From: a virus
Length of the DNA stretch: 64,000 nt
Reading direction: 5' to 3' (one strand)
Virus record (IMG/VR): IMGVR_UViG_3300021961_000075
Location: 4,519-68,518 of that record
In this document: piece by piece, positions 4,374 to 47,960 of the stretch
Layout: every line of letters begins with the position of its first letter
Numbering within the stretch: position 1 is the first letter of the stretch
Position numbers and translations under genes: made by a program
Notes under the pieces: model-generated
Told to the model about the DNA's origin: nothing
What the model saw: the letters and a program-made list of their open reading frames with translations, nothing else
Database searches by the model: none

Positions 4374-5180
4374 ATGAATAAAATACAAGAAATTTTTAAG
4401 GCTTGGAACATTGCGATGGATCCAACAACAAAACAAGCTGAACTTGCTTCAAAAAGACTAGAAATATGTAATAGTTGTGAGTATAAGGTCACAAACTTAG
4501 GTATCAATAGGTGTTCAGTTTGTGGTTGCGCTTTAAAGGGCAAGGTATTTACCCCAGCTATTGGTGGCTGTCCAAAAGGTAAGTGGGATGATATTGACAA
4601 GCGGGCGCTATATCAAGACAAACCAATGGTGCAAGAGTTTGATAATCAGTTAACTAAAGAAGAGTGCGAAGAATTAATAAATAAAAGCAAAGACAAGTTA
4701 AAGCAAGCTGGCGTTCTTGGTGAGCACAGAGAAAATTACAGGACAGCACAACAGACTTGGATTTTCGATAATGATCCTTTAAGTTTAAAAATAAAAAGTA
4801 TAATTCTTAATAAAACAAATTTACCGCACGAAAACCAAGAAGCACTTCACGTAGTCAAGTACGAAGTTGGTGGAGAATACAAACCTCATCATGATTTTTT
4901 TCATCCAAATACAGATTACTACGAAAGCACAACTAAAATTGGTGGACAACGCAAGTACTCTTGTTTGTTTTACTTAAATGATAATTTTAAAGGTGGTGAA
5001 ACATATTTTCCAAAAAAAGACTTAAAAATACAACCGCATTTAGGAAAACTATTAATGTGGGATAATTTAAATAAAGACGGCTCTCCAAATCAAGATAGCC
5101 TTCATGCTGGACTACCAGTTGAAGATGGTGAAAAATGGATTTGTATAGTCTGGGTTAGAGAAAAAAGTTTAAAGACTTAA
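4374..5180 (+). CDS. Prolyl 4-hydroxylase-type 2OG-Fe(II) dioxygenase with an N-terminal Cys-rich putative Zn domain
   Basis: YKPHHDFF (HxD), LFYLND..GGETYFP and LHAGLPVEDGEKW (distal His and Lys) match the P4Hc pattern. N-terminus has ICNSC..CSVCGC..CPKGKW. Confidence 0.85.
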   Translation: MNKIQEIFKAWNIAMDPTTKQAELASKRLEICNSCEYKVTNLGINRCSVCGCALKGKVFTPAIGGCPKGKWDDIDKRALYQDKPMVQEFDNQLTKEECEELINKSKDKLKQAGVLGEHRENYRTAQQTWIFDNDPLSLKIKSIILNKTNLPHENQEALHVVKYEVGGEYKPHHDFFHPNTDYYESTTKIGGQRKYSCLFYLNDNFKGGETYFPKKDLKIQPHLGKLLMWDNLNKDGSPNQDSLHAGLPVEDGEKWICIVWVREKSLKT

Positions 5181-19616: not shown

Positions 19617-19880
19617 ATGGCAAGACTTGATAAATCTAAAATGGCTTGTAACAAGCCGAAAAGAACACCAAGTCACCCAACTAAATCGCATGTAGTAAAA
19701 GCATGTTCAAATGGACAAGAGAAGATTATTAGATTTGGGCAGCAAGGAGTTAGTGGAGCAGGAAGCAAAACTGATGCAAAGTCTAAAGCGCGACGCAAGA
19801 GTTTTAAAGCGCGGCATGCTAAGAACATTGGTAAAGGCAAAATGTCTGCGGCTTACTGGGCTGACAAAGTAAAATGGTAG
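19617..19880 (+). CDS. Basic conserved phage protein
   Basis: IIRFGQQG...RRKSFKARH...SAAYWA motif. Confidence 0.75.
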   Translation: MARLDKSKMACNKPKRTPSHPTKSHVVKACSNGQEKIIRFGQQGVSGAGSKTDAKSKARRKSFKARHAKNIGKGKMSAAYWADKVKW

Positions 19881-20859: not shown

Positions 20860-21058
20860 AGAAAAGATTATCACTAATACCGAAGAAGATGTTTCTGCAG
20901 ATAGATTAAAAAATGCTGCAGCTACAAAAAAATTAGCAATATTTGATGCTTTTGAAATACTTACACGTATTGAAAACGAGAAAGCATTGTTAGAAAATAA
21001 ACCTATAGAAGACAAGAAAGAATCTTTTAAAGGTTTCGCTGAAAGAAGAAGCAAGTAA
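20783..21058 (+). CDS. Hypothetical protein, possible small terminase subunit
   Basis: 91 aa, helical, coupled to the terminase start; function inferred from position only. Confidence 0.55.
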   Translation: MNIKEQKLNIIQAGYKAVEELIRVAEEKIITNTEEDVSADRLKNAAATKKLAIFDAFEILTRIENEKALLENKPIEDKKESFKGFAERRSK

Positions 21059-23268
21059 TGGAATATCAACAGACCTTATATAAAATCGTTGAGCCAGTCA
21101 AACTAACAACAATACACCGTAGAAATAAAGCAAAGTCTTGGAAATACGGTTACGATAAAGAGTGTGGTATTGTAGTTATAAGTAGGACTGGTGAGATAGG
21201 AGATATATACGAAATACAAAACCTGCATATTGCGCTGCCAAAGCAAGCGGATGTGTATAGCAACAAATCCAGTAAATGGGAACGGTTTGATTACCCGAAG
21301 GAGTTGCAGCGTATAAATACTATATTTGATTGGAGAGATGCTCCTACTGAGTTTAAAGATACGTGGGAGGAGTATATAGATGAAGAGTTTGAAAGACGTG
21401 AAAAAGGTTTTTGGTTTTTAAACAAGGATAAACCAACATACATAACAGGGACACATTACATGTATCTGCAATGGAGCAAGATAGATGTAGGTGCTCCTGA
21501 TTTTCGTGAAGCAAACAGGTTATTCTTTATATTTTGGGAGGCATGTAAAGCTGACGAGAGGTGCTACGGCATGTGTTACCTTAAAAACAGACGTTCTGGG
21601 TTTTCATTTATGTCAAGTGCAGAAACTGTTAACCTTGCTACGATTACATCAGATTCTAGGTTTGGTATACTATCAAAGTCTGGATCCGATGCTAAAAAGA
21701 TGTTTACAGACAAGGTTGTGCCCATATCAATCAACTATCCGTTTTTCTTTAAGCCAATACAAGACGGTATGGACAGGCCGAAGTCAGAACTCGCATATAG
21801 GGTTCCAGCTTCAAAGCTTACAAAAAAGTCCATACAGAATAAAGAAAAAGAAATACTCGAAGGACTTGATACCACGATTGACTGGAAAAACACGGGTGAT
21901 AACTCGTATGATGGTGAAAAGCTAGCATTATTAGTACACGATGAAAGTGGTAAGTGGGAAAGGCCTGACAATATATTAAACAACTGGCGCGTAACAAAAA
22001 CGTGCCTTAGACTAGGTAGTCGTATCATTGGTAAATGTATGATGGGATCAACATCCAATGCGCTGGACAAAGGAGGAGACAACTTTAAAAAGCTTTATTA
22101 CGATTCAGATGTCACGCAAAGAAACCGCAATGGACAGACTCGCAGTGGATTATATAGTTTGTTCATACCTATGGAATGGAACTACGAAGGATTCATCGAT
22201 GCTTATGGAATACCTGTATTCGATACGCCAGAAACGCCGGTTAAAGGACCGATGGGAGAGAGTATTGACATTGGTGTAATAGAACATTGGGAGAACGAAG
22301 TTGCAGGATTAAAAGAAGATCAAGACGCTTTAAATGAATTTTACCGACAGTTTCCTCGATCAGAGGAGCACGCGTTTAGAGACGAAACAAAAAGCAGCGT
22401 ATTTAACCTGGCAAGAATATACGACCAAATAGATTTTAATGAAGAAGCAAAGTATCAAGGTCTTACTACCAAAGGTAGTTTCCAGTGGGAAAATGGCATA
22501 CAAGATACAAGGGTTATATTTGCGCCTAACAACGATGGTAGATTTAATATTTCTTGGATACCGCCTCTAAGTTTACAGAATAAATACGAAATAAGAAATG
22601 GTATTAGGTATCCTGGAAACGAGCATATAGGCGCGTTTGGCTGCGATAGCTATGATATATCTGGAACAGTAGACGGTAGAGGATCTAAGGGTGCGCTACA
22701 TGGCCTTACTAAGTATAGTATGGAAGATGCGCCACCTAATGCTTTTTTCTTAGAATACATAGCTAGACCTCAAACTGCTGAAATGTTTTTTGAAGACGTT
22801 TTAATGGCATTAGTATTTTACGGTATGCCTATGCTTGCGGAAAATAACAAACCAAGATTGTTATATTATTTAAAACGCAGGGGATATAGAGGGTATTCAA
22901 TGAACAGGCCAGATAAAACATATAATAAGCTTTCTACAACAGAAAAAGAGATAGGCGGTATACCAAACTCAGGCGAAGACATTAAACAAGCGCACGCTGC
23001 TGCAATAGAGAGTTATATACAAAAGTATGTAGGTCAGACTAGCGAAGGCAATTACGGTAATATGTATTTCAACAAAACACTTAATGACTGGGCTAAGTTT
23101 GATATAAATAAAAGAACACAGTTTGATGCAACTATATCTTCTGGTTTAGCTATAATGGCCTGCAACAGGCATTTATACACGCCTAAGCAAGAAAGACAAG
23201 CTGTAACGCTGGGTTTTGAATTTAAAAAATATAATAACAACGGATACATTTCAAAAATAATAGAATAA
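21058..23268 (+). CDS. Terminase large subunit
   Basis: Walker A-like KNRRSGFS, Walker B LLVHDESGK, GSTSN, nuclease GCDSYD; lies before the portal. Confidence 0.9.
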   Translation: MEYQQTLYKIVEPVKLTTIHRRNKAKSWKYGYDKECGIVVISRTGEIGDIYEIQNLHIALPKQADVYSNKSSKWERFDYPKELQRINTIFDWRDAPTEFKDTWEEYIDEEFERREKGFWFLNKDKPTYITGTHYMYLQWSKIDVGAPDFREANRLFFIFWEACKADERCYGMCYLKNRRSGFSFMSSAETVNLATITSDSRFGILSKSGSDAKKMFTDKVVPISINYPFFFKPIQDGMDRPKSELAYRVPASKLTKKSIQNKEKEILEGLDTTIDWKNTGDNSYDGEKLALLVHDESGKWERPDNILNNWRVTKTCLRLGSRIIGKCMMGSTSNALDKGGDNFKKLYYDSDVTQRNRNGQTRSGLYSLFIPMEWNYEGFIDAYGIPVFDTPETPVKGPMGESIDIGVIEHWENEVAGLKEDQDALNEFYRQFPRSEEHAFRDETKSSVFNLARIYDQIDFNEEAKYQGLTTKGSFQWENGIQDTRVIFAPNNDGRFNISWIPPLSLQNKYEIRNGIRYPGNEHIGAFGCDSYDISGTVDGRGSKGALHGLTKYSMEDAPPNAFFLEYIARPQTAEMFFEDVLMALVFYGMPMLAENNKPRLLYYLKRRGYRGYSMNRPDKTYNKLSTTEKEIGGIPNSGEDIKQAHAAAIESYIQKYVGQTSEGNYGNMYFNKTLNDWAKFDINKRTQFDATISSGLAIMACNRHLYTPKQERQAVTLGFEFKKYNNNGYISKIIE

Positions 23269-25686
23269 ATGTCAAAAGTATTACCTAGAGGTATATTTCC
23301 TAGCCAAGCTGTTAGTGACGGAGAAAAAGCTAGCTTTGAGTATGGCTTAGAAGTTGCTAAGGCTATAGAAGGCGAATGGTTTAAGAGAGATTCTGGCAGT
23401 GTTAGATTCTATGCAAACCGAGATAATTTTCACAGGCTAAGACTTTACGCTAGAGGTGAACAGTCTATACAGAAATATAAAGATGAGTTGTCTATTAACG
23501 GCGACTTGTCTTATCTTAATTTAGACTGGAAACCAGTACCTATTATTCCGAAGTTTGTAGACATTGTTGTTAATGGTATTGGCGAAAGATTATATGATAT
23601 TAAAGCTTATTCTCAAGATCCAGCAGCTGTTCAAGAAAAAACAAATTACTTGAATGACATATTGAGAGATATGCAAAACGCTGAACTACTTCAAACTATA
23701 CAACAAGAGTTTGGCGTTAACATGTTTAAAACAGATCAAGAAAATCTTCCGCAATCAACAGAAGAACTACAACTTCATATGCAATTAGACTACAAGCAGT
23801 CTATAGAGATAGCAGAAGAAGAAGCAATCAATAATGTTTTAGACTACAACAAGTACAACTTGTTAAAGAAAAGACTTGATTATGATTTAACCGTTGTTGG
23901 TATAGCTTGTGTTAAAAACACATTTAACACATCTGAAGGCATAAAGCTAGAATACGTTGATCCAGCTGATTTAGTTTATTCTTATACAGATTCACCTTAT
24001 TTTGATGATTTATATTATGTAGGTGAAATACGCAGAGTAAGTATTGTAGATCTTAAAAAACAATACCCAGACCTAACAGAAGAAGATATTAAAGATATTG
24101 AAGGCAGTGGAAGTAATTCTATGCTTTATAACAAGTCTTATTCTTCGTCTGATGCTGAAGATAGAAACTACGTTTACGTACTTTATTTTGAATATAAAAC
24201 ATTTAAGAATCAAGTATATAAAATAAAAGAAACATCAAGCGGCGGAGCTAAAGCTATAGAAAAAGATGACACCTTTAATCCTCCAGGCGACTCAAGAGCT
24301 AGATTTGAAAAAGTGTCTAGATCAATAGAGGTATTATATACTGGCGCAAAAGTAATTGGACATCACAAGCTTCTTGAATGGAAACTTGCCGAGAATATGG
24401 TAAGACCAAAATCTGATACTACAAAAGTTCAAATGTCTTACAATATAGTAGCGCCAAGAATTTATAAAGGTAAAATTGAATCGCTTGTAAGTAGAATGAC
24501 ATCGTTTGCTGATATGATTCAACTTACGCATTTAAAATTACAACAAGTACTTTCTCGTATGGTACCAGATGGCGTTTATCTTGATGCCGATGGTATTGCT
24601 GAAATTGATTTAGGTAATGGAACTAATTATAATCCACAGGAAGCATTAAACATGTACTTTCAAACAGGTAGTGTAATTGGTAGATCAATGACGCAAGACG
24701 GTGAGTTTAATCACGGTCGTATACCTGTTCAAGAATTACAGTCTGGTGCTGGTGGTAATAAAATAGGCGCTTTAATAAATTCCTACAATTATTACCTACA
24801 AATGATTCGTGATGTTACAGGACTCAATGAGGCTAGAGACGGTAGTATGCCAGATGAAAGATCTCTTGTTGGTCTTCAAAAATTAGCTGCCGCAAATTCA
24901 AACACTGCTACAAGACACGTGTTACAATCGGGATTATATTTAACCCTTAAAACAGCTGAAGCTATTTCTCTTAGAATATCGGATGTTTTACAATATTCAA
25001 ATACAACAGCTGCGTTTGTGGCTGGTATAGGCAAGTTTAATGTTGGTACGTTAAAAGAAATAGAAAAACTACACTTACACGATTTTGGCATTTATTTGGA
25101 ACTCGCTCCAGATGAAGAAGAAAAACAATTACTCGAAAACAATATACAAGTAGCATTACAAAGAGATCAAATATATCTTGAAGACGCTATTGATATTAGA
25201 GATATAAAAAATACAAAACTTGCAAATCAACTTCTAAAACTAAGAAGACGTAAGAAATCAGAAGAAGATAGAGTTAATCAATTAGAAAATATTCAAGCTC
25301 AATCAGATTCTAATGCCAGAGCAGCACAAGAAGCTGCCGCTGCTGAAATGCAAAAAGAACAGGCTCTTACTGAAGGAAAAGTTCAATTAGAGCAGGTTAA
25401 GGCAAATCTTGAAATGCAAAAGCTTGAAAGAGAGGCCGAGATTAAAAAACAATTAATGCTTCATGAGTTTGATTTAAACATGCAACTTAAACAACTTGAA
25501 ATGCAAGTGATTAATGGTAAAGAAGCTTATAAAGAAGATAGAAAAGATAAGCGTACTAAAATTCAGGCTACACAACAGTCTGAACTTATAGAACAAAGAA
25601 AAGGAAATGTTGGTCCAAAAGATTTTGAATCTGCTGGATTTGATACGCTAGGTGGTTTCGGCCTTGAGCAATTTGAACCTAGATAA
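23269..25686 (+). CDS. Portal protein
   Basis: 805 aa; PIIPKFVDIVVNG, RDVTGLNEARDG, C-terminal coiled coil; position after terminase. Confidence 0.88.
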   Translation: MSKVLPRGIFPSQAVSDGEKASFEYGLEVAKAIEGEWFKRDSGSVRFYANRDNFHRLRLYARGEQSIQKYKDELSINGDLSYLNLDWKPVPIIPKFVDIVVNGIGERLYDIKAYSQDPAAVQEKTNYLNDILRDMQNAELLQTIQQEFGVNMFKTDQENLPQSTEELQLHMQLDYKQSIEIAEEEAINNVLDYNKYNLLKKRLDYDLTVVGIACVKNTFNTSEGIKLEYVDPADLVYSYTDSPYFDDLYYVGEIRRVSIVDLKKQYPDLTEEDIKDIEGSGSNSMLYNKSYSSSDAEDRNYVYVLYFEYKTFKNQVYKIKETSSGGAKAIEKDDTFNPPGDSRARFEKVSRSIEVLYTGAKVIGHHKLLEWKLAENMVRPKSDTTKVQMSYNIVAPRIYKGKIESLVSRMTSFADMIQLTHLKLQQVLSRMVPDGVYLDADGIAEIDLGNGTNYNPQEALNMYFQTGSVIGRSMTQDGEFNHGRIPVQELQSGAGGNKIGALINSYNYYLQMIRDVTGLNEARDGSMPDERSLVGLQKLAAANSNTATRHVLQSGLYLTLKTAEAISLRISDVLQYSNTTAAFVAGIGKFNVGTLKEIEKLHLHDFGIYLELAPDEEEKQLLENNIQVALQRDQIYLEDAIDIRDIKNTKLANQLLKLRRRKKSEEDRVNQLENIQAQSDSNARAAQEAAAAEMQKEQALTEGKVQLEQVKANLEMQKLEREAEIKKQLMLHEFDLNMQLKQLEMQVINGKEAYKEDRKDKRTKIQATQQSELIEQRKGNVGPKDFESAGFDTLGGFGLEQFEPR

Positions 25687-25714
25687 AAAACAACTTATTT
25701 TATAATATTATATT

Positions 25715-26917
25715 ATGTCAGATTACAAAGTAAACTTAGTAAACGATGATACGCCAAGTACATCTGAAAGAGAAGAACAGGTTTTAGAAAACTCTGGTTT
25801 TTCAACAAAAGAAAACGATGGTGTATACAAGGTTAATTTAAACGAACCAAAAGATGCCATTCAAAAGCAAAGCACAGATGAGGTATCTGTTTCTGAAGGA
25901 GCCGAAACTGGCGAAGAAATGGGCGAAGAAGTACGGAGTACCGAAGAACCTACCGAACAAAAAGAAGAAGTCTTAGAACTAATAAAAGAAGATCAAGATG
26001 CCGAGTTGCAACAAACCCAAGAGCAAGGGCAGTATGAAGCCCAAAGCCAAGAAGCAGAGCTACAAAAAGAAGAAGTAGTTCAACAAATAGAACTTCCAGA
26101 GAATATTCAAAAAGTCATAGACTTTATGAAAGAAACTGGTGGTAGTTTAGAAGACTACGTTAGGCTGAACACGGACTATACCTCTGTTGATCAGCAAACT
26201 TTGTTAAGAGAATACTACAAACAAACTAAGCCTCATTTAGATAATGAAGAAATTAGTTTTTTAATTGAAGATAGTTTTTCTTTCGATGAAGACGTGGATG
26301 ACGAGCGAGATATACGTAGAAAAAAACTCGCATATAAAGAAGAAATTGCTAAAGCTCGAAACTTTCTTATTGATTTAAAGGGTAAATATTACGATGAAAT
26401 TAAATTAAATTCAAAACTAGCCCCAGAACAAAAAGAAGCAGTAGAGTTTTATAACAATTATAAAAAACAGCAGGAAGAACTAACTGCTGTGCAGAACAAA
26501 GTTTCTGAACATTTCACAAAACAAACCGATCAAGTTTTCAATAATGAATTCAAAGGTTTTGATTTCAAGGTTGGAGACAACACGTATAGGTTTAAAGTGA
26601 ATGACGTTCAAGAAACCAAACAGGTGCAAAGCGATATTTTAAATGCGTTTAAGACGTTCTTAGGCGAAGACAATATGCTAAAAGATGCCAAAGGTTACCA
26701 CAAAGCTTTGTTTGCTGCTAGAAACGCTGATAAAATAGCAAATCATTTTTATGAGCAAGGTATGGCTGATGCTGTAAAGAAAATGGAGGCAGAAGCTAAA
26801 AATATCAACATGGATCCAAGAAAAATAAATCAAGGATTTGTTGATGCCGGAGGAATGAAAGTGAGAGCTGTTTCTGGCGATGATAGTTCAAAACTAAGAA
26901 TTAAAATAAAAAACTAA
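25715..26917 (+). CDS. Acidic scaffolding-like head protein
   Basis: 400 aa; E/Q-rich disordered N-terminal third; lies between portal and capsid. Confidence 0.7.
   Translation: MSDYKVNLVNDDTPSTSEREEQVLENSGFSTKENDGVYKVNLNEPKDAIQKQSTDEVSVSEGAETGEEMGEEVRSTEEPTEQKEEVLELIKEDQDAELQQTQEQGQYEAQSQEAELQKEEVVQQIELPENIQKVIDFMKETGGSLEDYVRLNTDYTSVDQQTLLREYYKQTKPHLDNEEISFLIEDSFSFDEDVDDERDIRRKKLAYKEEIAKARNFLIDLKGKYYDEIKLNSKLAPEQKEAVEFYNNYKKQQEELTAVQNKVSEHFTKQTDQVFNNEFKGFDFKVGDNTYRFKVNDVQETKQVQSDILNAFKTFLGEDNMLKDAKGYHKALFAARNADKIANHFYEQGMADAVKKMEAEAKNINMDPRKINQGFVDAGGMKVRAVSGDDSSKLRIKIKN
25854..25976 (+). CDS. Overprinted 40-aa basic micro-protein in the +1 frame of the scaffold gene
   Basis: MPFKSKAQMRYLFLKEPKLAKKWAKKYGVPKNLPNKKKKS; A-rich leader with A at -3. 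Confidence 0.6.
   Translation: MPFKSKAQMRYLFLKEPKLAKKWAKKYGVPKNLPNKKKKS
25998..26078 (+). CDS. Overprinted 26-aa basic micro-protein in the +1 frame of the scaffold gene
   Basis: MPSCNKPKSKGSMKPKAKKQSYKKKK; A-rich leader. Confidence 0.4.
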   Translation: MPSCNKPKSKGSMKPKAKKQSYKKKK

Positions 26918-26938: not shown

Positions 26939-28342
26939 ATGGCTATTACATTAGGAAATGGAGTTGTTACTCCAACCCCGCAAAAAGCCGCTTTGCCAAC
27001 TAACTACCTTGATTTTACTTCAAGCGCTGTTGCTGGATGGGCGCAACAATATCTACCTGAGCTTTACGAAGCTGAAGTAGAAAAATACGGAGATCGCTCT
27101 ATCGGTGGTTTCCTTAGAATGGTAGGTGCTGAAATGCCTATGTCATCTGATCAAGTAGTATGGTCAGAGCAAGGTCGTCTACACCTTTCTTACACTGGAA
27201 CTCTTGGAGCTGATATCGCAACTCCAGGTGCTGATGGTGGAACTAACTCTATCAGTGGTCTTGCTTCAGGACACGCTGTACGTCTTAACCAAACTGTAGC
27301 TATCACTGATGGAAGCATCACTGCTAAAGCTATCGTTACTGAAGTAGGTTCTACTTCTATCAAAGTAAAAGGTTACAAAGGTGCTCTTGTTGCTGGTGCT
27401 TCAATGACTGCTGGTGCTGTAACTCTTTTCGTTTATGGTTCTGAATTTAAGAAAGGTTCTTCTAGCATGACCGAAAAAATCGAGCCACAATTCAAATCTT
27501 ACACCAATAAGCCTATCATCCTTAAAGATTTCTATGAAATCTCTGGATCTGATGCTGCTCAAATTGGTTGGGTTGAAGTAAGTGGTGAGGCTGGTCAATC
27601 AGGCTACCTATGGTATGTTAAGGCTGAGGCTGATACTCGTAAGCGTTTCGAAGATTACTTAGAAATGTCTCTGGTTGAAGCTGAAAAATCTGCAACTGAA
27701 ATCCTTGATGGTATTTCTGGAACAGAAGGTCTTTTCGCTGCTATTCAAGATCGTGGACACTACAATGCTGGTGTTGATTCAACTGGTGCTGGTTCTGCTG
27801 CTGCAAACCTAGCTGATTTTGACAATCTTCTTAAAGCTCTTGACAAACAAGGTGCTATCGAAGAAAACATGCTTTTCGTTAACCGCGATTTAGCCCTTAC
27901 TATCGACGATATGCTTGCTGGTATTGGTAACGCTAACTACGAAAACGGTACTTCATTCGGAGTATTCAACAACTCTGCCGATATGGCTCTTAATCTAGGA
28001 TTCTCTGGTTTCCGCAGAGGTTCTTACGATTTCTACAAAACTGACTGGAAATACCTTAACGATGCTTCTACTCGTGGAGCTGCTGACTTCGGTGTACGTG
28101 GTGTATTGATTCCTGCTGGAACTTCTTCTGTTTACGATCAAGTTCTTGGTAAAAACATCAAGCGTCCATTCCTACACGTTCGTTACCGCGCTTCTGAGGC
28201 TGATGATCGTCGTATGAAGTCTTGGATCACTGGATCTGTTGGTGGTGCTACTACTTCTGGAGATGATGTAATGCAAGTACATTACTTATCTGAAAGATGT
28301 TTAGTAGTTCAAGCTGCTAACAACTTCGTATTGTTTAACTAA
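26939..28342 (+). CDS. Major capsid protein
   Basis: 467 aa; WAQQYLPELYE, DQVVWSEQGRLH, GFSGFRRGSYDFYK; strongly biased codons (gct/ggt/cgt) suggest high expression; followed by a terminator. Confidence 0.88.
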   Translation: MAITLGNGVVTPTPQKAALPTNYLDFTSSAVAGWAQQYLPELYEAEVEKYGDRSIGGFLRMVGAEMPMSSDQVVWSEQGRLHLSYTGTLGADIATPGADGGTNSISGLASGHAVRLNQTVAITDGSITAKAIVTEVGSTSIKVKGYKGALVAGASMTAGAVTLFVYGSEFKKGSSSMTEKIEPQFKSYTNKPIILKDFYEISGSDAAQIGWVEVSGEAGQSGYLWYVKAEADTRKRFEDYLEMSLVEAEKSATEILDGISGTEGLFAAIQDRGHYNAGVDSTGAGSAAANLADFDNLLKALDKQGAIEENMLFVNRDLALTIDDMLAGIGNANYENGTSFGVFNNSADMALNLGFSGFRRGSYDFYKTDWKYLNDASTRGAADFGVRGVLIPAGTSSVYDQVLGKNIKRPFLHVRYRASEADDRRMKSWITGSVGGATTSGDDVMQVHYLSERCLVVQAANNFVLFN

Positions 28343-28351
28343 CAATCAACT

Positions 28352-28397
28352 GTAAGGTTTGCCCCTGTCTTTTGGCAGGGGTAACTCTTACTTTTTT
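28352..28397 (+). terminator. Rho-independent terminator after the capsid gene
   Basis: tgcccctgtc-tttt-ggcaggggta stem extended by gtaag/cttac, then a T tract. Confidence 0.85.
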
Positions 28398-31065: not shown

Positions 31066-34000
31066 ATGCCAGAGATTAAAAATACTTTCCTTGCTGGAAA
31101 GATGAATAAAAGTCTTGATGACCGATTACTGCCAGAGGGCGAGTATCGAGATGCATTAAACATACAGGTTACAAAATCTGAAGGCGCCGATGTTGGTGTT
31201 ATTCAAAATATAAAAGGAAACCAAAAAGTTAGTGGTGATGTTACTTTAGATGATAGTGCTAAAGTAATTGGCAGCTGCTTTGATGATCAAAATAACGTAA
31301 TATATTATTTTGTACATCAAAATGTTGGTGTTTCAAGCAAAATAATTAAATACGATAAAAAAGCAAATCCTCCTGTAGCTTCTGAAATTATTTCTTCAGA
31401 CGTTTTAGCTTTTGACAGAGACTCTTTTGTGCAAGCTAATGTTGTAGAAAACTATTTGTTTTTTACAGATGGCGTAAATGAACCTAGAAAAATAGATACT
31501 ACCATTAGCTATGATTCTAGCTCTATTGAAGAATACAACCTAACAGTTGCCAAACCAGCACCTCAACACGCCCCAACAGTATCAATTCAAACAACTGATC
31601 CTAACGCTGGTAATTATATTGAAGAAAAATTTGTAAGATTTGCATATCGTTACAAGTTTTCAGATAACACTTATTCTGTTTATTCTCCATTTTCAAATAT
31701 TGTTTTTGGTCTAGACACTGATGTTTTAACAGAGGATCAAATTAAGGATGCTTATTCTAAAGGTGAGCTTGATTTTTTAACTAATAAAGCCAAAACAATA
31801 AGTATTCAAGCAAAAAGTCCAGGAGGCGCGATAGGATTTTTTCCTACATCTTACGGCATTGTCCAGGTTGATATATTAATGAAATCTTCTGATTCTCCAG
31901 CTGTGATGCTTTTAGATAGCGTGCAAGTTGATGAATTTGGAGCTGTTCCTGCTTTTATTTATAATTCTGAAAAACCAAAAATAACACTTCCAGAAAATCA
32001 ACTTATAAGGGTTTATGATGAAGTACCTAAAACAGCTATTGCTCAAGAAATAGTTGGTAATAGAGTTGTTTATGGTAATTTCACGCAAGGTTTTGATATT
32101 AATACACGTGAAAGACTTCCTTTCGTTGTAAAAACAGAGCCAAAGAATATAAATTATCTAGGCGTTAAATCAAATAGAACATACGAGGTTGGTATTATTT
32201 TTTCCGACGATTACGGAAGAACATCTCCCGTAATGTTTGGGCAAAATAAATCAATAACTTTAGATAAAATAGTAGAAGATAATTACAATTTACAACTCGC
32301 TTTAGAGTTTAATAGTAATATTGATTATATAAAAAATAAAGGATTTAAATACTACAGTGTTGTTGTAAAACAAGCTGAACAAGAATATTATAACGTATAC
32401 ACTCCTGGATTCGCGCATATAAATGGTAGAACTTATTTTTCAATATTTGGAGACAACATAAATAAAATACCAATTGACACGTCTACTTATAATTCAGAAA
32501 CAAATATAAATTCTACAAAAACTAAAGTATCTATATCTTTAGTAAATAAATCGTTCTTTAACAAAACTACAACGTCTTCTTCAGATCCAATTAAAAAAAC
32601 CGCAATAGACTACGACTTTGCAAATAATAATCAAGTTGGAGGCCAAGATGTGGTTGTTGGCAATTTCACAAATATAGTTGGTTACGCAACGGTATCTCAT
32701 ATATATAATGAAACTGAAAATCTTGTTACTCCGTTTCCAGACGGCACAACAAGTAAGTTTGTAATAAACAACGGCGTAATACCAGACGCTGATCAACCAA
32801 ACATTGCTGGCGATGGTACACCAACCGGCGGAACGTTTTCTGTTGGTTTTACTGCTAATGATTGCACTGGCGTGGTTGTTTTTGTTGATGGAGTTGAGCA
32901 ATCATCTTCGCAGTTTGATTTTGATCCAACAGACGTATCTATAACTTTTGCACCGTCAAGCATACCAAGCACTGGTCAAACTATAGTAGTATTTTTTCAA
33001 TACGATAATCTTGTAATTCCGGCAGACACAAGTAGATCAGCGGTGTCATTAACTGAGATTTCTGGCACGGCGGCTATAACTGTTGTAGGTGAAATAGATA
33101 TAAACGTTACAGACGACACGTACGCAACTAGTTCGACGTCTACAGATATTCAATTGGCATCCCCTGTTTATGGAAATCTTGAACCAGTAAAAATAACAGG
33201 TATAGGAAATATAGACAATTTTTCCGTTATAAATAATGACATATTAGATGCAAGCACTGATTTGTTTGGTATATACAAAAAAGAAAATAAATATTTATTA
33301 GGAGAAATAGATGGAGAGTACGGTGTTCAGCTTTATAGCACCCAACCCTCTTTGTCCATGAAATATACGGATTTAGGAATTCTTGAAACAAAAGGTTTTG
33401 AATCTGTTATAGATATTTATTACGAGACCGCCACGCAGGGTTTAATTAATGAATTAGAAAACGCTACTAATGAAAATAAATTTGTTGTACGTGTAAATTA
33501 TTTTAATTGTATAAATTTAAAAACTCCATCAAGAAATTCAGAACCTAGTGTTATTTGGCAAGAATCAAGAATCAAAGGCGGATTTAACGAAACAAGCATG
33601 GACTATGGTGTTCAAGCGTACTTGACTAATGAAGATTATGGACTTATTAATAGAAAATCAAGTTTAATTTATTCTGGCGTATTAAATAATAATACCAAAG
33701 TAAACAACACCAATCAATTTCCATCTGGAGACGCAATAACAAGAACATTAGACCCAACACATGGATCCATACAAAAACTTTATGCTGACACAGATAACTT
33801 ACTTATCTTTCAAGAAGAAAAAGTTTCTAAAGCGCTAATTGATAAAGATATTATATACACGGCAGAAGGTCAAGGCTTAACAACAAAGGGTGAAAATGTG
33901 ATAACGCTTGAAAGAAGTTTTGCAACAAATTATGGCATAGGTAAAGATCCTCAAAGCTTTGCTGTTTATGCTGGTAGAAAATACTTTGTTGATAGGCCGA

Positions 34001-34716
34001 AAGGAGCTGTTTTAAGGCTTTCTGGTGATGGTATTACAGAAATATCTAATTATGGCATGCGTAGTTATTTTAGAGAAGAACTAAGCAATCCTACAATAAA
34101 TAAAGTTATAGGTAGTTGGGATATTTACAACAAGGAATATATATTAACTATTGATTCAGACTCTAGCGTTACTTTAGGTTTTGATGAATCAAACAATGGT
34201 TGGGTTTCAAGATATAGTTATATACAAGAAAACGGAGGTAGTATAGATGGTAATTTTTATACTTTCAACAAAGGTCATTTGTACAAGCACAACGCGACAG
34301 AAAGTTATAACACTTTTTATGGAGTAACAGCCGCCGCTTCGACGATAGAACTTATATTTAACCAAAATGCCTCTGTAAACAAAAACTTCTATACTATTAA
34401 TTATGAAGGAACAAATACATGGGATATAAGTACTATAGAAACAGATACTCAAGATACTGGTTTAGAGATAAAAAGTAATATTAACGCTGTTGCTGACACA
34501 GATACTATTATTAATTTGTCTGCTTTTAAAAAATACGATGAAAAGTATTTTGCAAACATAATAAATAGCAGTCCAGTTAAATCAAACGAGGTTGTTTTTG
34601 GTAAAGATATATCTGGTGTTAAGGGTCATTTTATGAAAGTAACGCTTAATAATGAAGAACCAGGATACCAAGAGTTATTTTCTATATCAACAAACTATAA
34701 TGTAAATAGTTATTAA
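31066..34716 (+). CDS. Tail nozzle/muzzle (DNA stabilisation-type) protein
   Basis: 1216 aa; GKMNKSLDDRLLPEGEYRDALNI start, LFFTDGVNEPRKI, GSIQKL, GWVSRYSY. Confidence 0.8.
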   Translation: MPEIKNTFLAGKMNKSLDDRLLPEGEYRDALNIQVTKSEGADVGVIQNIKGNQKVSGDVTLDDSAKVIGSCFDDQNNVIYYFVHQNVGVSSKIIKYDKKANPPVASEIISSDVLAFDRDSFVQANVVENYLFFTDGVNEPRKIDTTISYDSSSIEEYNLTVAKPAPQHAPTVSIQTTDPNAGNYIEEKFVRFAYRYKFSDNTYSVYSPFSNIVFGLDTDVLTEDQIKDAYSKGELDFLTNKAKTISIQAKSPGGAIGFFPTSYGIVQVDILMKSSDSPAVMLLDSVQVDEFGAVPAFIYNSEKPKITLPENQLIRVYDEVPKTAIAQEIVGNRVVYGNFTQGFDINTRERLPFVVKTEPKNINYLGVKSNRTYEVGIIFSDDYGRTSPVMFGQNKSITLDKIVEDNYNLQLALEFNSNIDYIKNKGFKYYSVVVKQAEQEYYNVYTPGFAHINGRTYFSIFGDNINKIPIDTSTYNSETNINSTKTKVSISLVNKSFFNKTTTSSSDPIKKTAIDYDFANNNQVGGQDVVVGNFTNIVGYATVSHIYNETENLVTPFPDGTTSKFVINNGVIPDADQPNIAGDGTPTGGTFSVGFTANDCTGVVVFVDGVEQSSSQFDFDPTDVSITFAPSSIPSTGQTIVVFFQYDNLVIPADTSRSAVSLTEISGTAAITVVGEIDINVTDDTYATSSTSTDIQLASPVYGNLEPVKITGIGNIDNFSVINNDILDASTDLFGIYKKENKYLLGEIDGEYGVQLYSTQPSLSMKYTDLGILETKGFESVIDIYYETATQGLINELENATNENKFVVRVNYFNCINLKTPSRNSEPSVIWQESRIKGGFNETSMDYGVQAYLTNEDYGLINRKSSLIYSGVLNNNTKVNNTNQFPSGDAITRTLDPTHGSIQKLYADTDNLLIFQEEKVSKALIDKDIIYTAEGQGLTTKGENVITLERSFATNYGIGKDPQSFAVYAGRKYFVDRPKGAVLRLSGDGITEISNYGMRSYFREELSNPTINKVIGSWDIYNKEYILTIDSDSSVTLGFDESNNGWVSRYSYIQENGGSIDGNFYTFNKGHLYKHNATESYNTFYGVTAAASTIELIFNQNASVNKNFYTINYEGTNTWDISTIETDTQDTGLEIKSNINAVADTDTIINLSAFKKYDEKYFANIINSSPVKSNEVVFGKDISGVKGHFMKVTLNNEEPGYQELFSISTNYNVNSY

Positions 34717-45911: not shown

Positions 45912-46617
45912 ATTTCTATTTTTATGGTTGGCTTCAATAGGAGCTCTCTATGGACAGGTTTTAGGCAAAACCGTAACAGAAGATTACACTGCAGATTTTG
46001 AATCAAGAGAATCAATCTGGGACATCCCAGAATACAACGGGGATCCAACGACCGTGGCTTTGTTGAGTATCGGTGTTAATGACGAAGTATTAAGTCAATA
46101 CCCTGAGCTCGGAGACTACAGAGTTGGACTTGGACTTACAAATATTACTACAGCATTTTTAGAAGAAACATTTCGTTTTGAATTTGTAGAAACAAAAGAT
46201 GAAATAAAAGACCGTATGGTTAAGCAGTATAAAGCTAGCCAACGAGGCTTAACGGCTAATGAGATCAACATCGTAGGTAATATTATGCTTGCGAAGTATT
46301 TTTGTTATATAGAAGTGTATGATTTTTCTATATCAGAAGATGAAACACTTAATTTAAAAGATGGTGTAAAGAATACGCTTGTAACAAGATTAGGTTTGCA
46401 AGTTAAAATGGTTGATGCTGAGACTGGTTTATATATGACTGGCTCAGGATTAGGAAAAGCAACCACAACAAGAGAGCTAACATTACTTAATGATGAAAAC
46501 CTAGAAGACGTTAAATTTAATCAATCGTCAATAGGTACGTCTACAAAAAAGGCATTAGAAACTGCAGTTGCGAAAGTTGTAAAACGCATGATTCGCAAAG
46601 GCGTATTTGATCACTAA
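45892..46617 (+). CDS. CsgG/HfaB-family (curli transport-like) secreted protein
   Basis: Signal ..LYG|Q; FRFEFVE, AKYFCYIEVYDF, RLGLQVKMVDAETG, KKALETAVAKVV follow the CsgG-fold pattern. Confidence 0.65.
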   Translation: MKGLIGKFLFLWLASIGALYGQVLGKTVTEDYTADFESRESIWDIPEYNGDPTTVALLSIGVNDEVLSQYPELGDYRVGLGLTNITTAFLEETFRFEFVETKDEIKDRMVKQYKASQRGLTANEINIVGNIMLAKYFCYIEVYDFSISEDETLNLKDGVKNTLVTRLGLQVKMVDAETGLYMTGSGLGKATTTRELTLLNDENLEDVKFNQSSIGTSTKKALETAVAKVVKRMIRKGVFDH

Positions 46618-47960
46618 TGAAATGGTGGTATACTTTATATTTATTTTTTCTATTTATTTTATCGGCGCACTCGCAATCTTTAGTTCAGACATTTGTAGAT
46701 CGCTGCACTGGAGAAATAAAAACAATAGTCATACCGCTTGAAGGTTCTACAGTTGTGGTTTTTTACAACAGATCAAGATCGTTTACTTTTAACGATGTAA
46801 GGTCTGGTGAATTACAGGCTTGGTTAGAAGAAACATATGCTTGGTGGCAATCATTATCACCTTGCTCTACAAATCAAGTCGCACAAACAGCAACTCAAAC
46901 AACTACACAAAATGCAACACAAAACACGGCCTCTACAGCGGCTAGTTCAGTTAGCCCGCCAACTCAAGGAACGAATACAACAAGTCAAAGCAGTGGTACA
47001 GCGACTCAAAGCGGTAATACTGAATCTAGCTCATCAGCAGGAACAGGGGAAACCTCTAACTCCGGTGGAAGCAACGATTCAGGAGGTGACGGAGGCAGCC
47101 AAGAGTCTCAGGGAGAAACCAGTGAAGGAGAAAGTCAAGAGGGGAACGATAGTTCAGGAGATGACTCCGAGTCAACAGAAGAAAGCTCAGAAGGAGAAGA
47201 AAGTGAGAATGAAGAGGATTCAAATGATGATGATGATGGAGAAGAATCTGAAGATGAAGAAGACAGTGGGTCGGGATCAAAAAAATCAAACCCTGTAATT
47301 GTAGCCGCTAACATAGCTACAATGTCTGCCTTAGATGGCTCTATAAACTTAGTAACAAATGTGGGCTTATCTCAAGCGAGTTTATCTGGTGATACTAGTA
47401 ATTCCTTGAATATTATGATATGGGATAACCTACAGCAATTTAATCTCAATATAGCCACTTCTTTTATGAATAAAGAACAACAGGTGATTATTAGAGATGG
47501 AAACAAAACAAAAACTACGGGTGGAAATGTAAAAAGCGTAGTTACTACATCATTAAACGCAATGTATTCATTTGGTACTTTGAATGCGGCTTTTGGAAAA
47601 AGCAAGGTTTATTTGATGAAAAATAACTTAGCGGCTGGTTGGGCTTCTAATATTATGGCGATGAAAATCCAAAAAGATTTTATGTTTATGCCAACAATGA
47701 TAGGGTTTGCTACTAAGCCTTATGTTTTTTACAAGTACACTGTTTCACCCATGCTGGCTACGGCTTTAAATCCAGTTATGTATTCTACGAGTACAAAACA
47801 ATTTACTTATAATACAAACGCTATGTTCATTATAGGTTCAAGTGGAAGTTTTAATCTTACTAAAAACTTTTATGTAAACTTAGGATTTAATATTATAGAA
47901 AGTACGGCTAACCTACCTATGACATGGGCGGCAACTATAGGAAGCAGATTCCAATTTTAA
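46617..47960 (+). CDS. Outer-membrane beta-barrel-like protein with an S/T- then D/E-rich disordered linker
   Basis: Signal ..AHS|Q; amphipathic strands in the C-terminal half; ends TIGSRFQF (terminal aromatic, BAM beta-signal-like). Confidence 0.6.
   Translation: MKWWYTLYLFFLFILSAHSQSLVQTFVDRCTGEIKTIVIPLEGSTVVVFYNRSRSFTFNDVRSGELQAWLEETYAWWQSLSPCSTNQVAQTATQTTTQNATQNTASTAASSVSPPTQGTNTTSQSSGTATQSGNTESSSSAGTGETSNSGGSNDSGGDGGSQESQGETSEGESQEGNDSSGDDSESTEESSEGEESENEEDSNDDDDGEESEDEEDSGSGSKKSNPVIVAANIATMSALDGSINLVTNVGLSQASLSGDTSNSLNIMIWDNLQQFNLNIATSFMNKEQQVIIRDGNKTKTTGGNVKSVVTTSLNAMYSFGTLNAAFGKSKVYLMKNNLAAGWASNIMAMKIQKDFMFMPTMIGFATKPYVFYKYTVSPMLATALNPVMYSTSTKQFTYNTNAMFIIGSSGSFNLTKNFYVNLGFNIIESTANLPMTWAATIGSRFQF

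Follow-up and report, generated by a model that had tools for sequence, protein, structure and literature searches.

A small basic phage protein probably encoded out of frame within a scaffold-like head gene

Does one short segment of a phage head gene encode two proteins, or is its second reading frame an accident of a Glu-rich sequence? The question is raised by a 64,000-nt stretch of viral DNA (the window), which covers positions 4,519 to 68,518 of the IMG/VR record IMGVR_UViG_3300021961_000075, a record of 68,518 bases rated complete. The window has a G+C content of 36%, and its nearest named relatives are podophages of Flavobacteriia, namely the Elemovirus isolates, Maribacter phage Panino and an uncultured podovirus. 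On the plus strand, a gene at 25715-26917 codes for a scaffold-like head-module protein of 400 amino acids (aa) and lies between a portal gene and a capsid-type gene. A preliminary description of the window, made from its letters, had placed two Lys-rich, ATG-started open reading frames (ORFs) in the +1 frame of this host gene, and the ORF listing contains both with the translations given for them, one at 25854-25976 (40 aa, basic) and the other at 25998-26078 (26 aa). Judged by sequence comparison, the first of them is a genuine, unannotated overlapping gene, and we regard it as very highly probable that it is a real dual-coding gene. The second ORF fared differently and is treated at the end.

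Selection, conservation and family of the first ORF

Selection was measured on 39 distinct host genes that carry the nested ORF, taken from the scaffold-homologue and family loci described below, with host proteins 45-81% identical to that of the window. The ratio of nonsynonymous to synonymous differences per site (pN/pS) was obtained from Nei-Gojobori counts pooled over all pairs and is given with its 95% bootstrap confidence interval. Across the overlap, the peptide frame exhibited a pN/pS of 0.47 (0.35-0.59) with a pS of 0.54, compared to 1.01 (0.78-1.44) with a pS of 0.30 for the host frame. Outside the overlap the host frame gave 0.62 (0.53-0.73; pS 0.60) over the 46 upstream codons and 0.40 (0.36-0.44; pS 0.67) downstream. 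The host pS in the overlap is thus about half of that in the flanks (0.60-0.67), and the reduced synonymous variation of the scaffold frame, which the preliminary description had suggested as a check, was indeed observed. The contrast between the frames was sharper among the 11 closest sequences, with a pN/pS of 0.25 in the peptide frame versus 1.03 in the host frame. Per-site entropy was in agreement: within the overlap it had its minimum at the third position of the host codons (0.65) and its maximum at that of the peptide codons (0.91), whereas the flanks varied most at the third position of the host codons (1.19-1.22). By these measures, over 25854-25976 the peptide is the selected product and the acidic host residues are its passenger; they appear to follow from the peptide because the host pN/pS is close to 1 there. 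The earlier idea that one stretch yields an acidic tract and a basic peptide by reading GAA as AAG holds in part: the first peptide appears to be real, but its Lys-richness is not a by-product of GAA codons, and it is the acidic residues that are carried along.

The nested ORF is also conserved in place. When viral sequences were scanned with the host protein, 36 loci homologous to 25715-26917 were obtained, and the exact N-terminal motif of the peptide was present in 24 of them. A family profile raised this number to 26 of 36 by adding two loci with a variant motif (L022 and L036). Where the motif is present, the nested ORF always lies in the +1 frame, 115-142 nt past the first host ATG, and the nested ATG is retained in all nested copies. 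With conservation at 26 of 36 loci and purifying selection in its own frame, the central proposal of the preliminary description, that one DNA stretch encodes two proteins, is borne out for the first ORF. In a tree of 49 host proteins, built by a quick method and rooted at the midpoint, the peptide subtypes track the host clades, with 7 label changes against a mean of 22.6 after shuffling; the nested arrangement therefore appears to be old and mostly inherited vertically.

The product of 25854-25976 matched phrog_1375 (E 4.1e-4, residues 3-27). A word-indexed protein search with the 40-aa query returned 36 relatives among 40 candidates, with E-values down to 6.4e-13 and the best of them 72-85% identical, and the resemblance to stand-alone small phage proteins noted in the preliminary description is therefore confirmed. 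A profile search of 1.84 billion representatives gave 3943 matches at E<=0.001, 423 of them at <=1e-10, in proteins of fewer than 50 to 1014 residues. Among the 150 matches listed of these 3943, the domain begins at residue 1 in most and later in about two dozen; in such longer forms the extra residues precede the motif. In an alignment of 35 sequences, M1, P2, F3, K4, S5 and Q8 were invariant or at least 90% conserved and W23 was nearly invariant, and the window peptide has all of these residues. On these matches, 25854-25976 encodes a member of a large family of small basic phage proteins, hereafter the MPFKS family, of which the window genome carries a single copy. The ATG and the peptide are thus both conserved and stand-alone homologues exist, the reverse of what the preliminary description had expected for a spurious ORF.

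The AlphaFold2 (AF2) model of the peptide, built from the family alignment, is a helical hairpin with helices at residues 6-15 and 17-27 and a predicted local distance difference test score (pLDDT) of 87.5, followed by a Lys-rich tail. Its closest fold matches in BFVD are uncharacterised phage members of the family. Pfam gave no match for the peptide, the host protein, the long-form relatives or the 35 family members, and the cluster annotations of six relatives read only 'hypothetical protein'. When 20 long-form relatives were compared with PHROGs, phrog_1375 was found, together only with weak low-complexity matches to tail lysin and tape-measure profiles; judged by eye, their C-terminal parts are Gly/Ala-rich and hydrophobic. 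Two other leads were rejected. A PDB sequence search with the family profile returned only designed 'Cake' repeat proteins, which we regard as spurious, and a lead to DUF3008 (one cluster, score 0.85, 15% of members with DUF3008) was dropped after none of the 35 family members matched this domain, even at E<=10.

The reading of the +1 ORFs as non-functional accidents of a GAA-rich acidic tract, in which a Glu-rich and A-rich sequence is naturally Lys-rich and poor in stops when GAA is read as AAG, fits the second ORF, but for the first it is refuted by these comparisons and keeps a negligible probability, given the invariance across the family of residues other than Lys (M1, P2, F3, S5, Q8 and, nearly, W23) alongside K4, the stops that interrupt the host-like frame of free-standing homologues (in 16 of 25 short stand-alone ORFs) and the lower pN/pS of the peptide (0.47 against 1.01 for the host).

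Initiation at the nested ATG and use of the host frame

The context of initiation was examined as the fraction of A in the 20 nt before the ATG and as the mean minimum free energy (MFE) of folding over positions -30 to +30. At the nested ATG of the 39 loci the A fraction was 0.60 and the MFE -3.3 kcal/mol, close to the values of the real gene starts in the window (n=33; 0.51 and -4.4 kcal/mol) and distinct from those of its internal out-of-frame ATGs (n=512; 0.34 and -8.25 kcal/mol). In the window, the leader of the first ORF at 25834-25853, on the plus strand and within the host coding sequence, is A-rich and weakly structured (A 0.55, MFE -2.3 kcal/mol), and that of the second ORF has an A fraction of 0.60. 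The A-rich leaders reported in the preliminary description are thus real when set against the mean of 0.34 at the 512 internal ATGs. Bacteroidota make little use of Shine-Dalgarno pairing, and an A-rich, weakly folded leader fits such hosts. More informative than this pattern are the higher-GC phages: among the nested loci with a GC content of at least 0.43, 10 of 12 have GGAG or GAGG 7-12 nt before the nested ATG (read from the listing), and in these higher-GC relatives the motif is written into conserved host codons. In the window, a +1 stop at 25839-25841 is separated from the nested ATG by four +1-frame codons (25842-25853, plus strand; the stop-to-stop frame is 25842-25973), and the product cannot extend N-terminally because of this stop. 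The family profile aligns at the window locus from its residue 5. These features make independent internal initiation at the nested ATG likely.

A programmed +1 frameshift out of the host frame would instead give a fusion of the host N-terminus with a basic tail. The two frames do overlap on one mRNA, and frameshifts are used by phage structural genes such as T7 gene 10 and the tail chaperones. We nevertheless consider this explanation very improbable, because free-standing genes of the family, like most of the 150 matches listed, begin at the family's own Met, the ATG is kept in all nested copies, the +1 stop stands four codons before it, and Shine-Dalgarno-like motifs precede it in the higher-GC relatives. 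No slippery motif was noticed on reading the sequence, a point for which no dedicated search was run.

The host frame was then considered in its own right. In the AF2 model of the host protein, residues 1-124 are acidic and predicted to be disordered and residues 125-365 form mostly long helices; the overlapped residues (codons 47-88) lie in a segment with a pLDDT below 50. Over the 46 upstream codons, the pN/pS of 0.62 in the host frame compares with 0.85 and 1.24 in the other two frames. When the peptide was recoded synonymously 20,000 times with the codon usage of the window, only 0.1% of the recodings kept the host frame free of stops. The host frame is open in all 56 distinct nested sequences, a count that is not independent evidence since the nested class is defined by an open host frame; the figure of 0.1% and the upstream codons are independent of this definition. 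The codon of Phe3 is TTC in 56 of 56 nested genes, as against 18 TTC and 7 TTT in the 25 short stand-alone genes, and TTT at this position creates a stop in the host frame. In every homologue examined the host ORF is open from just past the portal gene, and its ATG is always 9-45 nt beyond a stop that follows the portal gene; complete copies of the host gene have a conserved total length of 365-409 aa. On this evidence the host frame is also maintained, so that both frames appear to be used.

It could be argued that the peptide gene is real but that the long frame is untranslated across it, the true start of the scaffold gene being further downstream. Such a start would suit the lack of amino-acid constraint on the overlapped host frame (pN/pS 1.01), the predicted disorder of the first 124 residues and the position of free-standing relatives of the peptide gene just upstream of scaffold genes. 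Yet the frame that only 0.1% of recodings leave open is open in every nested homologue, only in the host frame do the 46 upstream codons show coding-like evolution, the host ATG keeps its distance of 9-45 nt from the stop behind the portal gene and the protein its length of 365-409 aa, and in the giant host genes described below the host frame continues for more than 1000 codons on each side. A downstream start is therefore improbable in our estimate, and dual coding of 25854-25976 is retained as the preferred reading.

The label 'scaffold' for the host gene rests on its position and its predicted helices and should be taken as provisional. Its place between portal and capsid-type genes fits a head scaffolding protein. 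The host protein had no Pfam match and no significant PHROG match; its model matched uncharacterised proteins in BFVD, where the rows named scaffold had weak E-values of 0.17-0.45, and reached Z<=5.4 in the PDB. The homologue of the host gene in Flavobacterium phage elemoA is annotated 'structural protein'.

Settings of the family and function of the nested gene

Viral contigs were scanned with the family alignment. At least 595 stretches matched, and in at least 400 of these a relative is encoded; the 80 closest to the window peptide were retained, a sample biased toward relatives of the window. Among these best 80 loci, the ORF is nested in the +1 frame of scaffold-like ORFs of 300-999 aa at 22 and of ORFs of at least 1000 aa at 20, stands alone at 19, forms the N-terminal domain of a protein of at least 100 aa at 6 and is ambiguous at 13. 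None is nested in the +2 frame, so that the nested copies are always +1 and never +2 (42 versus 0). The giant hosts fall into at least two BLASTP groups and a singleton, none of them similar to the scaffold-like host or to the large proteins of the window, and the host genes as a whole comprise at least three families without mutual BLASTP similarity.

The giant host ORFs of L055, L071, L114 and relatives exceed 1800 aa. Some giant hosts carry DUF3293 (E 1.6e-10), and ART-PolyVal, DUF3990, Sigma70_r4 and a PcrA/UvrD tudor domain were matched weakly or below threshold. The proteins of L055, L071 and L114 look like multi-domain packaged proteins, and their domains may recall the packaged 'polyvalent proteins' of phages. 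The giant host frame runs on for more than 1000 codons either side of the nested gene. When homologues of one giant host were collected through its upstream flank alone, 16 of 16 carried the nested ORF at the same spot. The giant-host motif right before the nested ATG is very conserved and contains a Shine-Dalgarno-like GGAG.

Nine stand-alone or long-form loci were profiled for their neighbours, and five of them (L085, L099, L109, L065 and L112) follow a portal gene at a distance of no more than about 850 nt. The portals of the portal-linked loci, that of the window included, represent four different PHROGs, and the next gene codes for a scaffolding protein in two of the five. The identification was weak at L045 and none was obtained at L061; the two other loci are discussed below. 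BLASTP of the neighbours of family loci against the window proteins gave no matches. A free-standing 39-aa gene of the family is annotated in phage 023Pt_psg01.

In Flavobacterium phage elemoA and the uncultured podovirus MW202828, the scaffold homologues are without the nested ORF. Their copies of the peptide lie instead in the +1 frame of giant genes, 3694 codons long in elemoA and 3859 in MW202828, and are unannotated in both; the giant gene of elemoA bears the annotation 'structural protein; DUF3293'. A match under this giant gene was found in each of the 68 Elemovirus isolates of the collection. About 400 nt upstream of the intact copy and in the same +1 frame, elemoA has the remnant MPFKSKKLMK followed by a stop (L123, 2829-2861), which may be a decayed second copy.

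From these data we propose the following explanation. Frame 0 would supply a disordered acidic linker of the 400-aa scaffold-like protein, the exact residues of which would be free of selection, and frame +1 would hold a small gene, complete from ATG to stop, that codes for a 40-aa basic helical hairpin. Both products would come from one late head-module mRNA, on which ribosomes would load independently at the internal AUG by means of the A-rich, weakly folded leader; in the higher-GC relatives, the Shine-Dalgarno-like GGAG in host codons would serve the same spot. The arrangement appears to be old and passed on with the host gene. In other phages the same family is free-standing, typically between portal and scaffold genes, and unrelated giant virion-protein genes also carry it within their +1 frame. 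The N-terminal hairpin may dock on a conserved partner, either nucleic acid or a head component, with the Lys-rich tail behind it, and the protein may act in or with the head. We have good confidence that the gene is dual-coding and is started internally on its own. More tentative, plausible but far from firm, is the proposal of a head-associated function in nucleic-acid binding or docking, which is drawn from the gene context, the basic charge, the universally conserved N-terminal hairpin and the long forms that resemble internal proteins.

Several points weigh against this explanation. The support for translation of the two frames is comparative, and the presence of the peptide in virions is conjectural. 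The pN/pS values pool non-independent pairs and come from a simple counting method that was not devised with overlapping genes in mind. Because the host tract is itself A-rich, the A-rich leader is confounded, and the non-conserved second ORF has an equally good context. A tblastn search with the window peptide against GenBank phages found no match even at E<=10, for which the low-complexity filter is the probable cause; searches with relatives as queries did find phage records. Ten of the 36 scaffold homologues (L024-L029, L031, L033-L035) are without the nested ORF, and no copy was found at E<=1 in the complete genome of Maribacter phage Panino or in two records that are 80% and 89% complete; because the gene is missing from all these, an essential structural role seems unlikely. 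Outside head modules, L113 lies near a methyltransferase gene and L115 near a glycosyltransferase gene, and the free-standing gp48 of Streptomyces phage FlowerPower adjoins a holin gene. Concerning function, no family or fold match that would assign one was found in the Pfam, PDB and BFVD searches, and a Foldseek comparison of the peptide model with the PDB gave none below E 2, with hairpins of the ribosomal protein S15 type on top.

It is possible that only the function proposed here is wrong and that the product is a non-virion accessory protein, binding nucleic acid or a host factor (for regulation, host takeover or counter-defence) and riding on late or structural mRNAs. Such a role would suit its absence from some relatives, its place beside holin, methyltransferase and glycosyltransferase genes in other phages, and the strong conservation that it keeps in phages whose portals and capsids are unrelated, which points to a universal partner rather than to a fast-evolving head protein. 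Arguing instead for the head-associated role, the head module is the commonest context, the best 80 family loci include 42 that lie inside scaffold-like or giant virion-type genes, and the C-terminal parts of the long forms resemble internal or ejection proteins, an impression gained from reading them.

A further proposal, which we consider rather unlikely, is that the MPFKS gene is a nomadic nested unit that has moved between host genes (scaffold-like, at least two giant kinds, or none when free-standing) and uses their late mRNAs. With a length necessarily divisible by three and a -1 frame that can be free of stops, such a unit can sit in disordered linkers without breaking the host. In its favour are the three or more unrelated host families, the exclusive use of the +1 frame (42 versus 0), the truncated copy in elemoA, and the discordance of a two-Cys subtype. 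This subtype, nested in one scaffold clade (L009-L015), shares 60-71% identity with the copies in the giant genes of elemoA and MW202828 but only 45-62% with the peptides nested in neighbouring scaffold clades, which hints at an exchange between host genes. Against it stands the vertical inheritance within each host family; a clean junction between presence and absence was not found among the loci examined, and repeated fusion of neighbour genes across a free-standing copy would give the same picture.

The closest described proteins are those of phrog_1375, such as FlowerPower gp48 and URG13095.1 of 023Pt_psg01, both hypothetical, which have the same MPFKS..Q at residue 1, the two-helix core and the basic tail; they are free-standing annotated genes, whereas the window copy lies wholly within another gene in its +1 frame. 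Gene E of phiX174 is nested in the +1 frame of gene D, which encodes the external scaffolding protein, and is expressed from the same mRNA with its own start. The window locus is alike in that a small gene lies wholly within a scaffolding gene in the +1 frame, its expression being assumed. However, E is a membrane lysis protein born within the Microviridae and has no free-standing relatives, unlike the window peptide, a predicted soluble basic hairpin that would be older and more widespread than the host region covering it and that belongs to a tailed double-stranded DNA (dsDNA) phage. Rz1 of lambda lies inside Rz, and spanin genes occur in embedded, overlapped and separated architectures. This resembles the window in the +1 nesting and in a family that is nested in some phages and separate in others; Rz1, however, is a lipoprotein that works with the product of its host gene, whereas the hosts of the MPFKS gene come from at least three unrelated families. 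In lambda C/Nu3 and Mu I/Z, head genes are nested in frame. As in the window, a second product comes from an internal start in a head-assembly gene, but it shares the frame and sequence of its host, whereas the window peptide is out of frame and unrelated in sequence. The preliminary description had also thought of DNA-condensing core proteins; the adenovirus core proteins VII and mu are likewise small, very basic and encoded among virion genes, and PDB searches found no relation to them in sequence or fold.

From phiX174 E and lambda Rz1 the window case differs in having a nested protein that is older and far more widely distributed than the host segment covering it, at least three unrelated host genes, and a place in tailed dsDNA phages. 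The literature searches, made within one library, found no description of this nested case, the broader ones (overlapping genes with scaffolding proteins, polyvalent proteins) covering titles and the openings of abstracts. To our knowledge, out-of-frame nested genes are thought to be rare in tailed phages, and annotation pipelines forbid them; gene callers that disallow nested ORFs would miss 42 of the 80 best family loci. A family with thousands of members thus seems to be repeatedly hidden in other genes, including those of 68 cultured isolates of Flavobacterium phages, in which it is unannotated. The locus would be a clean natural example of asymmetric selection in dual-coding DNA, with the residues of a disordered host-protein linker set by a conserved gene. 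For work on the expression and role of this common protein, Elemovirus on Flavobacterium sp. BAL314 offers a cultured system.

The second +1 ORF and the surrounding genes

The second ORF at 25998-26078, on the plus strand with an ATG start and a Lys-rich product of 26 aa, is probably not a gene. In nine close homologues, the host pS of the region past the first ORF was 0.60 and thus not suppressed, and the pN/pS was 0.59 in the host frame versus 0.66 in the +1 frame. In 24 of 39 homologues, a +1 ORF that starts with ATG and has at least 20 aa comes after the first ORF, and these ORFs are of at least four unrelated sequence types. The suggestion of a conserved partner gene found no support here, given an unsuppressed host pS, an unconserved sequence and no similarity to the first peptide; that the second peptide might be a decayed duplicate of the first was likewise rejected (723 of 1000 shuffles scored as high). 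Most likely the second ORF is a compositional by-product of the Glu/Gln-rich host tract. It may still be translated, given its leader, and may have a lineage-restricted role.

A 15-nt direct repeat (ACAAAAAGAAGAAGT) is found at the 3' ends of both +1 ORFs, at 25957-25971 and 26062-26076, 105 nt apart; 17 of 1000 codon shuffles scored as high. No tandem repeats were called over 25600-26300. The motif CNKPK of the second peptide, through which a link to the product of 19617-19880 had been suggested, does occur in that protein, but no more than chance would give: a 5-mer in common with window proteins turned up in 614 of 5000 shuffled versions of the 26-aa peptide, and the underlying DNA and codons differ. 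The protein of 19617-19880 is a basic protein of 87 aa with a weak, sub-threshold match to DUF5754 (E 0.0042).

Another +1 ORF, of about 40 aa and with Trp, Leu, Pro and Lys, was seen in the N-terminal region of the scaffold genes of L024, L025, L028, L029, L070 and L076, and it is similar between loci without and loci with the MPFKS gene. It is not distinguishable as a second nested gene because the host frame is equally conserved there. In the window, further same-strand ORFs in other frames are found at 46837-47298 (153 aa), inside a 447-aa ORF at 46617-47960, and at 21491-21925 (144 aa), inside a 736-aa ORF at 21058-23268.

The neighbours of the host gene are also on the plus strand. Upstream, the portal gene at 23269-25686 matched phrog_6547 (E 1.5e-152), and downstream, the capsid-type gene for a virion structural protein at 26939-28342 matched phrog_13704 (E 1.3e-103). 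A strong terminator-like hairpin of 11 pairs, 6 of them G-C, lies directly 3' of the capsid-type gene at 28359-28384, which points to a common transcript for the portal, scaffold-like and capsid genes. A promoter scan was uninformative, with 19 sites against 16.1 expected. Further downstream, the 1216-aa protein of 31066-34716 matched the Crassvirus muzzle protein PF25731 (E 6.4e-18) and its C-terminal domain PF25729 (E 3.2e-8), and the phage of the window therefore has tail architecture in common with the crAss-like phages.

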